From: an uncultured Bacteroidota bacterium
GTDB lineage: Bacteria; Bacteroidota; Bacteroidia; Bacteroidales; VadinHA17
DNA length: 64,000 bases
Direction: 5' to 3'
NCBI GenBank assembly: GCA_963772715.1
Contig: CAVYYM010000020.1
Location: 19,918-83,917 of the forward strand
A program made the position numbers and the translations under genes. Positions 20,963 to 63,413 of the stretch are shown one piece after another. The notes beneath the pieces are model-generated. The model did not search any database and was not told the DNA's origin. It saw only the letters and a list, made by a program, of their open reading frames with translations. Positions within the stretch are counted from its first letter, which is position 1. Every line of letters starts with the position of its first letter.

Positions 20963-21011
20963 GAAGACCTGAAGACCGAAGACCGAAGACAGAAGATCGA
21001 AGACTGAGAAC
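20963..21011. repeat. Tandem heptamer array (GAAGACC/CGAAGAC, 7 units), reverse complement of the 274-325 array
   Basis: Read directly: gaagacc tgaagac cgaagac cgaagac agaagat cgaagac tgagaac. It lies between the oxidoreductase start and the nagB stop. Confidence 0.85.
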
Positions 21012-21015
21012 CAGA

Positions 21016-31093: not shown

Positions 31094-31264
31094 ATCTTGA
31101 TTTTTAAAAATAAAATTTGCCAAATATAGTTTAAAAGATGAATCATAATAATCCGAATGATTTTTACAAGGTCAAGAATAATGCCAAAAATGGTTAAAAG
31201 TGTAAACGTCTTCAATCCACTCACTTTGGACTGATGTAAACACTACCCTGCTTCTTTCTGGTCA

Positions 31265-31843
31265 CATGTACTCACCCCCCCAGCCCCCCTCTCTGCTAAA
31301 GCAACGAGGGGGGGGTAATTGTGTAATGTATTAAATATCTGTGATTTATTATAAGGAATCTAGGAAGATTAATAATCTTGAGAGGGCTTTTTCCATGTTC
31401 TTAAGATCTTCGTTATTGATCCTAAAGATGTGTAATCCAAGGTCTTTCATTTCCTCGTCTCTGAAGGCATCGTACTCCTGGTTTGCTTCGTGAACAGGTC
31501 CATCAAGCTCTATGACTGTTTTCTTTTCAAAGCAAAAGAAATCAGCAATGAAATAATTATACCTTCTCAGGTTTCCCTTGTAGAGAATAGGATGCTGTCT
31601 CAGAAATTTATATCCATTCAGTTTTCTCCCTTTCAGCTCAATCCATAGCAATCTCTCTGAATCAGTAGGATTCTTTCTAAACTCCCTGACATGGTTTGTA
31701 ATTTTAGCAAAGTCGAATTTCCTGGCGCGAGACATACATTCGAGTAGCAAAAATCACATAAAGTTATAAATTTCAGACATTTATTCCAAACACCGCCCCC
31801 CTCTTTTGCTTGCAAGAGAGGGGGGCCGGGGGGGTGAGTACGT
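31265..31843. mobile_element. Candidate selfish unit: DUF559 endonuclease gene bracketed by ~50-bp inverted GC-rich hairpin repeats
   Basis: The left end is catgtactcacccccccagcccccctctctgctaaagcaacgagggggggg (31265-31316). The reverse complement of the right end (31793-31843) is cacgtactcacccccccggcccccctctcttgcaagcaaaagagggggg. The same element occurs as a cargo-less inverted pair at 52709-52830. Mobility is an inference. Confidence 0.35.
31349..31750 (-). CDS. DUF559 (Vsr/PD-(D/E)xK-like endonuclease) domain protein
   Basis: 133 aa, ...REFRKNPTDSERLLWIELKGRKLNGYKFLRQHPI...FIADFFCFEKKTVIELDGPVH.... This is the DUF559 pattern. The likely start is the internal MSRARKF (31735). Confidence 0.8.
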   Translation of the reverse strand: MLLECMSRARKFDFAKITNHVREFRKNPTDSERLLWIELKGRKLNGYKFLRQHPILYKGNLRRYNYFIADFFCFEKKTVIELDGPVHEANQEYDAFRDEEMKDLGLHIFRINNEDLKNMEKALSRLLIFLDSL

Positions 31844-31844
31844 G

Positions 31845-33512
31845 TTATTTTCCCGTCATATTCATCGCCGCCACATAGTAGTTCGGATCGACGACAATTA
31901 CAGCATTATCCCTGCCAAGGTCGATTGCGGTGAACCTCGCAGTGGGTGTAACAATTTTTGATTCACCCGAGACAAATATTCTGAGAGGCATATTGAATCC
32001 TGAAACACAGTTATTCCAGCGGAAATTCAGTTTGTCGTCTTTTACGAAATACTCGAAAACCGGTATTCTGATATCCCTAAGATACTGATCAAAGAATGGC
32101 TTCAGGTTCATTCCCATTTTTTCACTTATGTAATTCTCTATTTGCGAGCCTTTAACAACCTGATGATAAAAATCCTTGCTAAGACCACGCAGTATCCCTC
32201 TCCATTTCTCATCGTCGTTGACTATCTGACGCAGGGTGTGAAGCATAGCTCCTCCCTTCGGATACATGTCTCCAGACCCGCTGAAATTGACATTATACAA
32301 GCCTGTTATCGGCCTGTCGTTCCTGATGTTGCGGCGGGTGCCAAGTACATATTCTGTTCCGGCCTCCTTGCCATAATGGTATTCCACATAGAGGTTCTCG
32401 GAATAGTTGATGAAGCTTTCATGTATCCACATGTCTGCCACATCCTCATAAGTGATGCTGTTGGCGAACCACTCATGGCCTGATTCATGAATGATGATAA
32501 AGTCGAACTTGTTGCCCCAGCCTGATCCGCTCTGATCGTTTCCATTGTAGCCGTTCCTGTATCCGTTGCCGTAAGTGATACAGCTCTGATGCTCCATACC
32601 CAGGTAAGGTGCCTCGACAAGCTTGTAGCCATCCTCATAGAAAGGGTATGGTCCCATCCAGTGTTCAAATGCTGCAAGCATCATTGGCGCCTGTTTGAAC
32701 TGGACTTTCGCTTTTTCAAGGTTATCACGCAGGACGTAATAGTCGCAATCGAGATTGCCTTTCTCACCCTTGAAAATTTCTGAAAAATGGACATAATCGC
32801 CTATATTTATATTTACGCCATAATTACTAATCGGGTTTGCTACAAACCAGTTGTATGTTGTTGTCTTCTCTTTCCGGTTTTTAACAACACTTCTCAGCCT
32901 CCCATTGGACACATCCATCAGGTTTGACGGCACCGTAACCGTTATCAGCATACTGTCGGGTTCGTCATACATATGATCCTTGCATGGCCACCAGAGGCTT
33001 GCACCGTCGCCCTGACAAGAACTTGCGACGAAAGGCAATCCGTTTATATCCTTCTTCCAGGTTATGCCTCCGTCCCATGGCGGTCTTCTTGCGACATGCG
33101 GCTTCCCGCCGTAGCCAAGAATAATGGAATAGACCTTCCCGGCTTCCTGATTCTCCGGCATGGTAATCCAGTAAACATTGCCTTCCCTCCTGAAGCTTAA
33201 CTGCCTGCCATCCTGTTCTGCTTTAAGCAGATCGAGCGGAGGCTGCAAATCGATCTGCATGATATCTGAACTGTTCAATACCCTGTACATTACAGTATTA
33301 GTTCCATATATTGTTGAATCTGAAGGATTTACCTTTATGTTTAAATGATAGTAAGTCAGATCCCACCATGCTCTCTCAGGAGTGACAGAACCGCGAAGCG
33401 TATCCTGCCGGGTAAAGACCCTGGTCGCCGGTGGCGCAAACTGTGCATTCAGTATTTCACTGAAGATTATTAAGACTGAGGAGATAAATGCAAGGATAAA
33501 TCTGGTTTTCAT
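31845..33512 (-). CDS. M1-family metallopeptidase (aminopeptidase N-like), secreted
   Basis: Signal peptide MKTRFILAFISSVLIIFSEILNAQ. HEXXH motif IIHESGHEWFAN, with a downstream WIHESF glutamate. Confidence 0.8.
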   Translation of the reverse strand: MKTRFILAFISSVLIIFSEILNAQFAPPATRVFTRQDTLRGSVTPERAWWDLTYYHLNIKVNPSDSTIYGTNTVMYRVLNSSDIMQIDLQPPLDLLKAEQDGRQLSFRREGNVYWITMPENQEAGKVYSIILGYGGKPHVARRPPWDGGITWKKDINGLPFVASSCQGDGASLWWPCKDHMYDEPDSMLITVTVPSNLMDVSNGRLRSVVKNRKEKTTTYNWFVANPISNYGVNINIGDYVHFSEIFKGEKGNLDCDYYVLRDNLEKAKVQFKQAPMMLAAFEHWMGPYPFYEDGYKLVEAPYLGMEHQSCITYGNGYRNGYNGNDQSGSGWGNKFDFIIIHESGHEWFANSITYEDVADMWIHESFINYSENLYVEYHYGKEAGTEYVLGTRRNIRNDRPITGLYNVNFSGSGDMYPKGGAMLHTLRQIVNDDEKWRGILRGLSKDFYHQVVKGSQIENYISEKMGMNLKPFFDQYLRDIRIPVFEYFVKDDKLNFRWNNCVSGFNMPLRIFVSGESKIVTPTARFTAIDLGRDNAVIVVDPNYYVAAMNMTGK

Positions 33513-39545: not shown

Positions 39546-39552
39546 TTGTCCT

Positions 39553-39640
39553 GCCAGTCATGCAAGTCGTGCCAGTCATGCAAGTCGTTTAAGACCTGCA
39601 AGACTTGCAAGACCTGCAAGACCTGCAAGACTTGCAAGAC
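39553..39640. repeat. Two tandem arrays: 18-mer x2 (gccagtcatgcaagtcgt) then 9-mer x5.5 (aagacctgc/aagacttgc, containing palindrome CTTGCAAG)
   Basis: Read directly. It fills the whole spacer between convergent genes (stops at 39545 and 39640). Confidence 0.85.
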
Positions 39641-51897: not shown

Positions 51898-52641
51898 TCA
51901 ACCTGTTTTTTTCCATTTGCGTGAAAGAAGCACAAGCCGTGTCGCTTCATTGAAAATGACCGATACAGCAATGAAATATACTATATCCCTCAGGTCGATG
52001 ACACCTCTGCTCAATGATTTGTAATGTTCGTTTATCCCAAGGCCGATCACAAGCTCATCGAGTTTTTTAAGTCCGGGCAGGTAGGCGAAAGAATCGAAGC
52101 CCATGAACATCACTAAACATATGAGGACAGCAAAAATGAATGCAATTACCTGGTTATCGGTAAGTGACGAGGCAAAAATGCCGGCAGAGGCATATATGGC
52201 TGCAAGAAAGAAGAGACCTGCAAATGCCCCCCAGGTACCTCCCCTGTCAAGATTGCCGGGAGTTTCTCCAAGAGCATAAACCGAAAGATAATATACAAGG
52301 CAGGGAAGAAGTGAAAGCAGAACGAGCGCCACTGAAGCAAGGTATTTGCCCCAGATGATCTCTCTCTCTGTAACAGGTTTCGAGTACAAAAGCTCTATCG
52401 TTCCGAGTCGTTTCTCCTCTGCGATCATTTTCATCGTAACTGCAGGAACCAGGAAAAGGAATACCCATGGAGACAGGAAAAAAAGCGTGTCGAGACCGGC
52501 ATATCCGCTGTCGATAATATTTAGCTCGCCCGGGAAAACCCACATGAAAAGCGAGTTGGCCAGCAGGAAAACAATGATCACTATATAACCTGTCAGGCTG
52601 CTGAAAAATCCGCTTATTTCTTTCCTGAAAATCGCAAGCAT
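51898..52641 (-). CDS. gldF: Gliding-motility-associated ABC transporter permease GldF (ABC-2 type)
   Basis: MLAIFRKEISGFFSSLTGYIVIIVFLL...MKMIAEEKRLGTIELLYSKPV.... Six TM segments. Confidence 0.8.
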   Translation of the reverse strand: MLAIFRKEISGFFSSLTGYIVIIVFLLANSLFMWVFPGELNIIDSGYAGLDTLFFLSPWVFLFLVPAVTMKMIAEEKRLGTIELLYSKPVTEREIIWGKYLASVALVLLSLLPCLVYYLSVYALGETPGNLDRGGTWGAFAGLFFLAAIYASAGIFASSLTDNQVIAFIFAVLICLVMFMGFDSFAYLPGLKKLDELVIGLGINEHYKSLSRGVIDLRDIVYFIAVSVIFNEATRLVLLSRKWKKTG

Positions 52642-52708: not shown

Positions 52709-52830
52709 ACATGTACTCACCCCCTTAATCCCCCTCTCTGCTGAAGCAAAGAGGGAAGCTATTCATTATTAATTTATTAAGCCCCCTGCCATGCTTCAGC
52801 AGGGAAGGGGGTTTGGGGGAAGGGTACATG
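52709..52830. repeat. Inverted pair of the GC-rich REP-like element (same family as 31265-31316 / 31793-31843) with a 23-bp AT spacer and no cargo
   Basis: The left copy is catgtactcacccccttaatccccctctctgctgaagcaaagagggaag. The reverse complement of the right copy is catgtacccttcccccaaacccccttccctgctgaagcatggcaggggg. Confidence 0.8.
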
Positions 52831-52833
52831 AAA

Positions 52834-53967
52834 TTAAAAAGAATTCAGAAGTCTATCCTTACACCCGTATAGTAAGAATCCTATTATCTGCCTGTAATTG
52901 AATCCCTTTGCCGCCATCTCCATCGCCCCTTCCTGGCATAAGCCTACACCATGTCCATATCCTCTTCCCCTGAACATGGCTGAATCTCCGACTATGGCAA
53001 CGGAAAAGAAAGTCGATCGCAGATTGAGATCACTTCTGATCTGACGAAGTGGTATTGAGAATTCGCCTGCCTTGTAATTCGTTGATCTTGTTAACTGTGA
53101 AAAATTTAACAGTGACGTATTACCCGTACTGCCCGTGTAGCCTGATTTCCGGAGGTAAGCGATCCACCCTTCGAGACTTATAGATATATTCCATCTGGCG
53201 TTCCGGGATGCGAGGCAGTAAGGATCCTTCACTTTCCTGAGGTAAGGCTGCGAGGCAAGCCATACATCTTCCGAAGGAGATGTCTCTCCTCCGCAGTTGG
53301 AATGAAAAGCAGAAATTATCGGAAGCGTGTCGGGACCGAGTATCACCTCTCCCATGGTTTCGATGGCTGCCCTGATTATAATAGTATCGCTGGTCAGTCC
53401 GTTGAAAGACTGGCAGTGAGTATTGTCGCAAAGATTAAAATGGTCTGCGACATGCTTGTCAATATACCTGTACAAATAAGTGCGTGCTATGACAGCCTGC
53501 GTCTTGAAATACTCCCTATTCTTTCCTGAGCCTCCTTCCGATTTAACGACGCCGGCGATATAAGATTCGACATCGCAAATGTTTATGAACAGAAGGGTGC
53601 TGAGGTCAGGAAGACACTTAAGATCACCTGAATAGCTTTGTCTCAACTGAGTTTTTCCATATGTTCTGACAGAGAAGATATCCGTGCCGGTCCTGCCTGA
53701 AAGCAGGACAGAATCGCAGATGATACCTGTATCGTTCATCACCTTTACGGCCAGCCTGTCCTTGAATTTCGAGATTGCTACCAGGGTTCCTGGTTTTATA
53801 ATCCAGTTGTCACCTGAATAAGTATTGAGTTCGTATTCGCCGGCAATAACAGAGAATACTGCTGATTCCGGTGTCTGATCCGCAAAGATCCGGATCTTCA
53901 CCTGAGCTGAAACAGCTGATTTTACGATAAATAATAAAATAAATAAGATTGAAAGTCTTAATCTCAT
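52834..53967 (-). CDS. SpoIID/LytB-domain protein
   Basis: Signal peptide MRLRLSILFILLFIVKSAVSAQ. The motifs ...AVIARTYLYRY...HFNLCDNTHCQSFNG...HSNCGGET...RGRGYGHGVGLCQEGA are typical of SpoIID. Confidence 0.8.
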   Translation of the reverse strand: MRLRLSILFILLFIVKSAVSAQVKIRIFADQTPESAVFSVIAGEYELNTYSGDNWIIKPGTLVAISKFKDRLAVKVMNDTGIICDSVLLSGRTGTDIFSVRTYGKTQLRQSYSGDLKCLPDLSTLLFINICDVESYIAGVVKSEGGSGKNREYFKTQAVIARTYLYRYIDKHVADHFNLCDNTHCQSFNGLTSDTIIIRAAIETMGEVILGPDTLPIISAFHSNCGGETSPSEDVWLASQPYLRKVKDPYCLASRNARWNISISLEGWIAYLRKSGYTGSTGNTSLLNFSQLTRSTNYKAGEFSIPLRQIRSDLNLRSTFFSVAIVGDSAMFRGRGYGHGVGLCQEGAMEMAAKGFNYRQIIGFLLYGCKDRLLNSF

Positions 53968-63342: not shown

Positions 63343-63413
63343 ATTGCGATTGCGATTGCGGATTGCGAATTTCGGAATCCGAAATCCGAAATCAAAAATC
63401 CGAAATCAAAAAT
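63343..63413. repeat. Tandem arrays ATTGCG x4 followed by AATCCGA/AATCAAA x5 directly upstream of the lyase gene
   Basis: Read directly: attgcgattgcgattgcggattgcgaatttcggaatccgaaatccgaaatcaaaaatccgaaatcaaaaatt. Confidence 0.8.

Follow-up and report, generated by a model that had tools for sequence, protein, structure and literature searches.

A DUF559 nuclease gene between inverted hairpin modules in uncultured Bacteroidales: a discrete cassette with gene-less relatives and a candidate partner for triplex-motif repeats

Why should a single nuclease gene stand between two inverted copies of the same GC-rich hairpin? The question is raised by a 580-bp cassette in the genome of an uncultured bacterium of the Bacteroidales lineage VadinHA17 (assembly GCA_963772715.1; 3.97 Mb in 44 contigs), and more precisely in a stretch of 64,000 nucleotides, here called the window, that corresponds to C20:19918-83917 (contig CAVYYM010000020.1). 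The enclosed gene belongs to DUF559, to our knowledge among the commonest bacterial protein families without a known role. The enclosing modules are reminiscent of BoxC and other triplex-type repeats, for which decades of cataloguing have yielded no origin, function or partner protein (PMC4666352). Here the protein family and the repeat class are tied together: a single gene is accompanied by 26 derivatives that lack it, the unit has exact boundaries, and sister species offer empty sites. DUF559 becomes a testable candidate partner for a long-unexplained kind of bacterial repeat. Full-text searches found no paper tying DUF559 to flanking repeats and no published description of the pairing.

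The cassette was delimited with a profile hidden Markov model (HMM) of the half-site, which places two full-length half-sites at C20:51182-51761, that is, at 31265-31844 of the window, and these ends match the exact termini of related cassettes at other loci. The inverted arms (31264-31313 and 31796-31845) measure 50 nt each, are 82% complementary and lie 482 nt apart; the right end module is 88% identical to the left, and a terminal 14-mer, GTACTCACCCCCCC, is found on both strands, at 31268 and at 31841, where 0.32 matches would be expected by chance. Each arm folds into a separate hairpin, of -11 and -14.4 kcal/mol respectively (z = -2.1 and -3.4), and the arms enclose a single open reading frame (ORF), 31349-31750 on the minus strand, which matches Pfam DUF559 (PF04480) with E = 1e-24 and 87 bits against a cut-off of 20.6. 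The original prediction, made from the sequence of this locus, had described GC-rich inverted repeats that bracket one DUF559 ORF and nothing else, each repeat with a stem of its own, and in both respects it holds. The start codon is likely the ATG at 31735. A box of the form TAnnTTT[GA], resembling the -7 element of Bacteroidota promoters, precedes the start codon in 47 of 58 related cassettes by a median of 25 nt, compared to 9.4 expected from shuffled sequences; the cassette therefore appears to carry its own promoter, a function that we infer from the sequence of the box. The cassette encodes no transposase from any known family (DDE, Y1, serine, etc.), DUF559 being its only ORF. No invertase gene adjoins it, and no methyltransferase ORF lies next to it, as a partnership of the dcm type known for Vsr would have it. 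Its neighbors, named from their translations, are an M1-family peptidase-like ORF and a PQQ-repeat-like ORF.

The end modules are not confined to this locus. Across the whole genome, the HMM locates 4 halves standing alone and 27 inverted pairs, of which just one, the DUF559 cassette, has a gene inside. The other 26 are gene-less doublets of 112-146 bp (typically ~120 bp) with outward CAYGTAC termini, and in 23 of them a type A half (T-rich spacer, stem CCCCCTCTCT) is joined to a type B half (A/G spacer, stem CCCCCTTCTCT). At its left end the cassette is homologous to these doublets for ~70 nt inward, the doublet spacer included. A doublet within the window, at 52710-52830, lies behind ORF 52834-53967, 3 nt from its stop codon, and ahead of ORF 51898-52641, whose start is 68 nt away; it folds as a single long hairpin (-33.5 kcal/mol; z = -6.1). 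Rfam holds no family that matches the repeat. Read on its G-rich strand, the module consists of a pyrimidine arm, a loop, a purine arm, a spacer and GGGGGTGAGT, and this third block is mirror-compatible with the purine arm in 8.5 of 10 triplets over 54 half-sites, versus 5.9 after shuffling (p = 1e-8). By this measure the end modules follow the three-block layout of BoxC and TMECO.

The genome holds one DUF559 gene only (tblastn), and its product is a predicted nuclease. The residues D65, E76, D78, H82, D89, R92 and D93 are invariant across 14 homologues; in profile searches it matches PDB entry 3HRL (E = 2e-17) and, with E = 3e-6, the homing endonuclease I-Bth0305I in its catalytic domain. 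The AlphaFold model, with a pLDDT (predicted local distance difference test) of 86, matches the folds of 3HRL (template modeling score, TM, 0.80 by target) and 3R3P (TM 0.74-0.75), and more weakly that of TnsA. The protein thus has a predicted Vsr-like fold, with a conserved acidic and histidine catalytic core (D65, E76, D78 and H82). A defense or phage role was considered and rejected, given a marginal PADLOC match (E = 0.004) and no PHROGs match. One partial match was found among 2.9 million viral contigs, and homologues are carried by 24 of 72,556 plasmids, mostly very large replicons; with these scans almost empty, the element is essentially chromosomal. Exact-protein look-ups returned nothing. 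Metagenome scans found neither the empty nor the occupied cassette junction, and the species is therefore absent from that collection.

Where the cassette recurs at unrelated loci, its copies share 91-97% identity over a length bounded exactly by CAYGTACTCA and TGAGTACRTG. Because their homology stops exactly at the termini, the unit moves as a whole. For instance, the cassettes of two relatives, G024 and G032, share 91.7% identity over 567 bp in unrelated flanks, the homology having its start exactly at CACGTACTCA and its end exactly at TGAGTACATG. Horizontal transfer is not required for such a figure, since a gene flanking the cassette is itself 86% identical between the two genomes. Two copies inside one genome are 97.2% identical over 570 bp, and there are further pairs whose likeness is limited to the cassette, among them three copies in the cultured Sunxiuqinia dokdonensis DH1. 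The 14 loci of the close clade occupy at least 12 genomic contexts, just two pairs having flanking genes in common. The family occurs in uncultured Bacteroidales and beyond. The suggestion of a selfish unit bounded by terminal inverted repeats accordingly holds: homology of the copies starts and stops at the inverted termini, 26 gene-less doublets accompany the cassette, and DUF559 genes in relatives have such repeats on both sides much more frequently than control ORFs do.

Some of these loci have features of their own. In S. dokdonensis DH1 the end modules (hairpin plus GGGGTGGGT) at L161, L168 and L173 are apparently direct rather than inverted. The G024 cassette stands between ~60-nt direct repeats (L003:1330-1400 and 1965-2030), 88% alike and containing the hairpin TTCCCGCGAAAGGGAA, which could be another repeat family or a long duplication. 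Beside the cassettes at L009, L010 and L158 the terminal motif recurs in tandem, as in GGGGGTGAGTTCGTGGGATAYCAA, with a 24-nt period and at least 5 copies.

At one pair of loci (L002 in G001 and L012 in G022) the flanks are orthologous and in the same orientation, and the DUF559 gene is oppositely directed, which means that either the segment has inverted between the end repeats or a cassette was inserted on two occasions. The observation lends itself to the idea of an invertible switch, in which recombination at the inverted repeats flips the gene segment as in phase variation, and a table row in PMC9881135 lists DUF559 as enriched (odds ratio 14) among predicted inversion targets. However, the promoter-like box lies inside the repeats and flips along with the gene, so that inversion would not switch expression. 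Nor does an invertase gene accompany the cassette, and the 26 gene-less doublets and the movement between loci would be left unexplained. We consider a switch very improbable.

Comparison with relatives reveals that doublets and cassettes alike are lineage-specific insertions placed 0-15 nt behind stop codons, often at junctions of convergent genes with adjoining stop codons in other species. The stop codons of the convergent pair rpe and miaA are 0-52 nt apart in 12 genomes of the genus, with a spacer of 0 nt in G013, G022, G008 and G002; here the spacer is 134 nt long, a 123-bp doublet plus 11 nt. Similarly, the convergent junction that holds the G032 cassette (L006) is 0-3 nt long in 10 genomes, this one included, and 684 nt in G032, while in G018 it measures 1170 nt and holds a different DUF559 cassette with different repeats. 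Empty sites exist, then, for both a doublet and a cassette. At the site of the window's own cassette, G013 keeps the order of the peptidase and PQQ genes with a 189-nt spacer and no element, the spacer being too diverged for base-by-base alignment. Genome-wide, 27 neighbors have their 3' end turned toward an element, and for 24 of these the distance to it is no more than 15 nt; all 10 tandem-gene spacers have the element at the stop-codon end (combined p = 4e-7, with crude ORF calls). Such placement may reflect targeting, or selection, for example for a terminator.

Several further observations concern these junctions. At the rpe/miaA site other species have other repeats. The form in G001 (L184; G001:C1), located directly after rpe, measures 69 nt and has a single hairpin with a C-run and terminus on one side and a G-run and terminus on the other; it looks like a doublet collapsed onto one hairpin. 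Beside the G032 cassette there are 55 and 66 extra nt (L006:1343-1396 and 1960-2026) that are missing from the 0-3-nt empty sites and are not common to the 91.7%-identical G024 copy. At the G024 ortholog of this site (L230; G024:C21, ~7 kb), all that is present is a piece of the terminus, CATGTACTCACCCCC, at a distance of 19 nt from the stop codon; synteny is lost past the fragment, and the contig carries the G024 cassette 34 kb from there. The repeat may have been the place of a rearrangement. In other species the same convergent junctions hold simple arrays, (GGCGGAAG)n and (GGGCTGG)n at L198 (G014) and L221 (G005), which are like the heptamer and octamer arrays of this window at 273-325, 20963-21015, 39548-39640 and 63376-63413.

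The empty sites bear directly on the possibility that the gene is a homing-type parasite, whose dimeric nuclease would cut the doublet spacer and whose gene would be pasted in by recombinational repair from an occupied copy, the repeats themselves spreading by other means. Indeed, the gene sits at the position of the doublet spacer, which the left end retains, and by profile and fold the protein matches I-Bth0305I, a homodimeric homing endonuclease with a pseudopalindromic target (PMC3239194). The persistence of repeats without the gene would be accounted for as well. Yet the 0-3-nt spacers at the L006 site contain no doublet, and the cassette therefore arrived where no doublet is seen; likewise, the G013 ortholog of the window's site is without any repeat. 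Just 1 of the 27 potential targets in this genome is occupied, and the same placement of cassettes and doublets behind stop codons suggests one insertion process for both. On balance, homing seems an unlikely account.

How general is the association? DUF559 homologues occur in 37 of 61 related genomes, which are mostly draft metagenome-assembled genomes (MAGs). The flanks of 80 DUF559 loci of relatives were fetched and scored by the best inverted repeat that brackets the gene, 74 of them being scorable, and 1486 ORFs of this genome were given the same score as a control, with a 99th percentile of 13; the two top-scoring controls were the DUF559 ORF itself and a Y1 transposase ORF. This percentile is exceeded by 64 of the 74 scorable loci (40 relatives) and by 62 of 75 scorable loci when the 80 closest homologues from one-per-species genomes are taken. 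Overall, ~85% of DUF559 genes stand between inverted hairpin repeats, versus 1% of controls. In close homologues the geometry of the cassette is constant (median span 570 bp, with gaps of ~64 nt upstream and ~37 nt downstream of the gene), and more distant DUF559 paralogues stand between different repeats of the same design, such as ACCCCTAAATCCCCCAGGGGGGACTTT. Repeat dissimilarity tracks protein distance (Mantel r = 0.36, p <= 5e-4). At least 3 repeat copies are found in 11 of 12 genomes having a close-clade gene versus 7 of 25 lacking it (p = 3.6e-4, uncorrected for phylogeny), and repeat number correlates with DUF559 copy number (rho = 0.49). Two further expectations were looked into and dropped: no decay of doublets was seen in genomes without the gene, and the direction of the gene with respect to its type A and type B ends was not significantly fixed (14 versus 6, under a crude classification).

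It is conceivable that these two partners have no enzymatic link, the repeats being spread by host processes or another enzyme, with a DUF559 protein of repair, defense or toxin function that merely travels or survives between them. Orphan repeat families that are equally well conserved do exist, each of the six genomes tested has Y1 transposase genes, and other kinds of repeats, such as the heptamer arrays, enter the same junctions. Against this, coincidental company is hard to square with the excess of bracketed DUF559 genes over controls, with a repeat that brackets no other gene in this genome, and with a gene and ends that travel as a single exact unit. Y1 or RAYT-like transposases were rejected as the mover, since both Y1 genes of this genome carry unrelated repeats, one flanked by tandem GGCTAAAGCCGACGGCAATTGA units and the other lying between direct repeats of ~190 nt. 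There is no meaningful match to a defense or phage family either. We find an unlinked pair improbable.

The best reading, to which we would give an even chance, is that the cassette is autonomous, its nuclease acting on the folded ends, and that the doublets are derivatives moved in trans. What the comparisons show is how the unit is laid out, how general this is, where exactly the unit ends and that its insertion is polymorphic; every enzymatic step is inferred. The DUF559 nuclease, probably as a dimer, would recognize the end modules, perhaps in the form of a folded hairpin, a triplex or a cruciform, and would cut at or near the cassette termini; host replication or repair would then complete the move. 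[quoted passage not shown] Such an autonomous cassette finds support in that the repeat family here is tied to only one gene (27 pairs, one of them enclosing DUF559), in that the catalytic residues do not vary and the fold recurs in I-Bth0305I and, more distantly, TnsA, and in that different repeats accompany both Y1 genes of this genome. The bracketing of most DUF559 genes, the Mantel correlation, the homology limited to the cassette, the empty sites and the co-occurrence of gene and repeat also speak for it.

A number of observations weigh against an autonomous cassette. As the original prediction had already remarked of this locus, no target-site duplication is visible, and the same is true of the 27 elements of this genome and of the cassette pairs compared. 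A PD-(D/E)xK nuclease is not known to carry out strand transfer by itself. Co-inheritance of gene and ends is enough to produce the Mantel correlation, and the test of co-occurrence ignores kinship among genomes that are mostly drafts. Two genomes with no DUF559 gene at all (G006 and G033) and one with no close-clade gene (G034) hold 12-22 repeat copies, with mean identities of 0.79-0.90 compared to 0.82 in this genome. The halves of the doublets are only ~80% alike, and there has therefore been no recent burst; moreover, the likeness of the cassette ends to the doublets is no greater than that among the doublets themselves. Finally, a second three-block repeat type (CCCCYAAAYCCCC..GGGG) has 8 copies in this genome and no matching DUF559 gene. 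Elsewhere, this second type reaches 149 copies in G018, which has 9 DUF559 genes, and 36 copies in G020, where no DUF559 was found.

A broader and more tentative proposal is that DUF559 nucleases might be the missing partner enzymes of BoxC and triplex-motif repeats in general. They would constitute a nuclease-only system that recognizes folded ends, does without known transposase chemistry, and places itself and its gene-less derivatives behind stop codons, with DUF559 clades matched to repeat types. If the nuclease does act on its own ends, this would represent a new route of DNA movement in which a restriction-enzyme-like fold takes the place of a transposase, and a widespread source of rearrangements in genomes, and of insertions at the ends of genes, would be explained as well. 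The question is directly testable because a cultured carrier, S. dokdonensis DH1, has three copies.

Table 1. Features of the cassette and of related elements. Positions are those of the window unless a contig of the genome (G000) is named.
Feature	Position	Strand	Description
Whole cassette	31265..31844	.	580 bp, CATGTACTCA ... TGAGTACGTG; half-site profile HMM
Left end module	31265..31316	+	Terminus CATGTACTCA, C-run, 2-nt spacer, GC-rich hairpin (31284-31313)
DUF559 (Vsr-like PD-(D/E)xK nuclease) gene, predicted	31349..31735	-	128 aa from ATG at 31735; open frame reaches 31750
Promoter-like -7 box, Bacteroidota type, putative	31759..31766	-	TAACTTTA; within cassette, 24-31 nt upstream of ATG; read from sequence
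Right end module	31793..31844	-	Inverted copy of left: CACGTACTCA, C-run, spacer, hairpin
TAA stop codon of M1-family aminopeptidase gene (31845-33512)	31845..31847	-	Abuts right cassette end, gap 0 nt
Gene-less doublet	52710..52830	.	121 bp; type A half + type B half, same end modules
Second repeat type, 8 copies	G000 C19:59772, 64616, 67091, 67239; C23:18972; C31:122850; C41:196027; C42:33380
Two Y1 (IS200/RAYT-like) transposase genes	G000 C33:215938-216279; C30:50386-50730

Among known systems, pairs of IS and MITEs provide the most familiar arrangement: a one-gene unit bounded by terminal inverted repeats, accompanied by many short gene-less units with the same ends. Unlike them, the present unit shows no visible target-site duplication and encodes no transposase of a known family; it is only ~570 bp long, and its ends are structured hairpin or triplex-motif modules. 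With the EDxHD (Vsr-like) homing endonucleases, whose prototype is I-Bth0305I (PMC3239194), it shares a catalytic fold and motif and a selfish, nuclease-only content. The gene here, however, is free-standing, outside any intron or intein. It sits between doublet halves, but the empty sites of relatives are without a doublet. Its 128-aa protein lacks the large N-terminal DNA-binding region, and the unit brings its own inverted ends and inserts at sites without homology.

The REPIN-RAYT system (Bertels and Rainey 2011, PMC3116915) is similar in that inverted doublets of hairpin repeats are dispersed extragenically, that a gene, usually single, is flanked by the same repeats, that the repeats outlive the gene, and that distinct gene clades go with distinct repeat types. 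This was the parallel drawn in the original prediction, and it stands as far as layout is concerned. It fails on the enzyme, which is a PD-(D/E)xK (Vsr-like) nuclease unrelated to the Y1 HUH transposases of RAYTs, and on inheritance, as the gene and its ends change locus between species, whereas RAYTs are described as vertically kept. Furthermore, there is no GTAG or CGTC tag here.

The closest resemblance in the repeats themselves is to BoxC, PIT and TMECO, in which a pyrimidine arm, a loop and a purine arm are followed, after a short spacer, by a third block, rich in G, that is a mirror of the purine arm. The blocks here are AGAGAGGGGG, ATTAA and GGGGGTGAGT, compared to GGGAGAGGG, TTA and GGGTGAGGG in TMECO. 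The TMECO consensus has 0 matches in this genome, and the two therefore represent the same architecture in different sequence families. Both are intergenic and present in multiple copies, loci that carry the repeats are rearranged in both, and both form inverted doublets in which a type A copy (T/A spacer) is joined to a type B copy (C/G spacer), as is the case for 5 of 5 TMECO doublets in E. coli MG1655 (PMC4666352). For TMECO and BoxC no partner gene was named and no link to mobile elements was found (Holder et al. 2015, PMC4666352). In MG1655, the DUF559 gene of E. coli, ycjD, has TMECO #9 ~165 bp downstream of it. The interval between the two contains the 3' end of ycjD a second time, in degenerate form (L101:900-1130), and a TM-like hairpin overlaps the stop codon of ycjD. 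What sets the present modules apart from BoxC and TMECO is that they have an additional outer terminus, CAYGTAC, and that they serve as the ends of a gene-bearing mobile unit.
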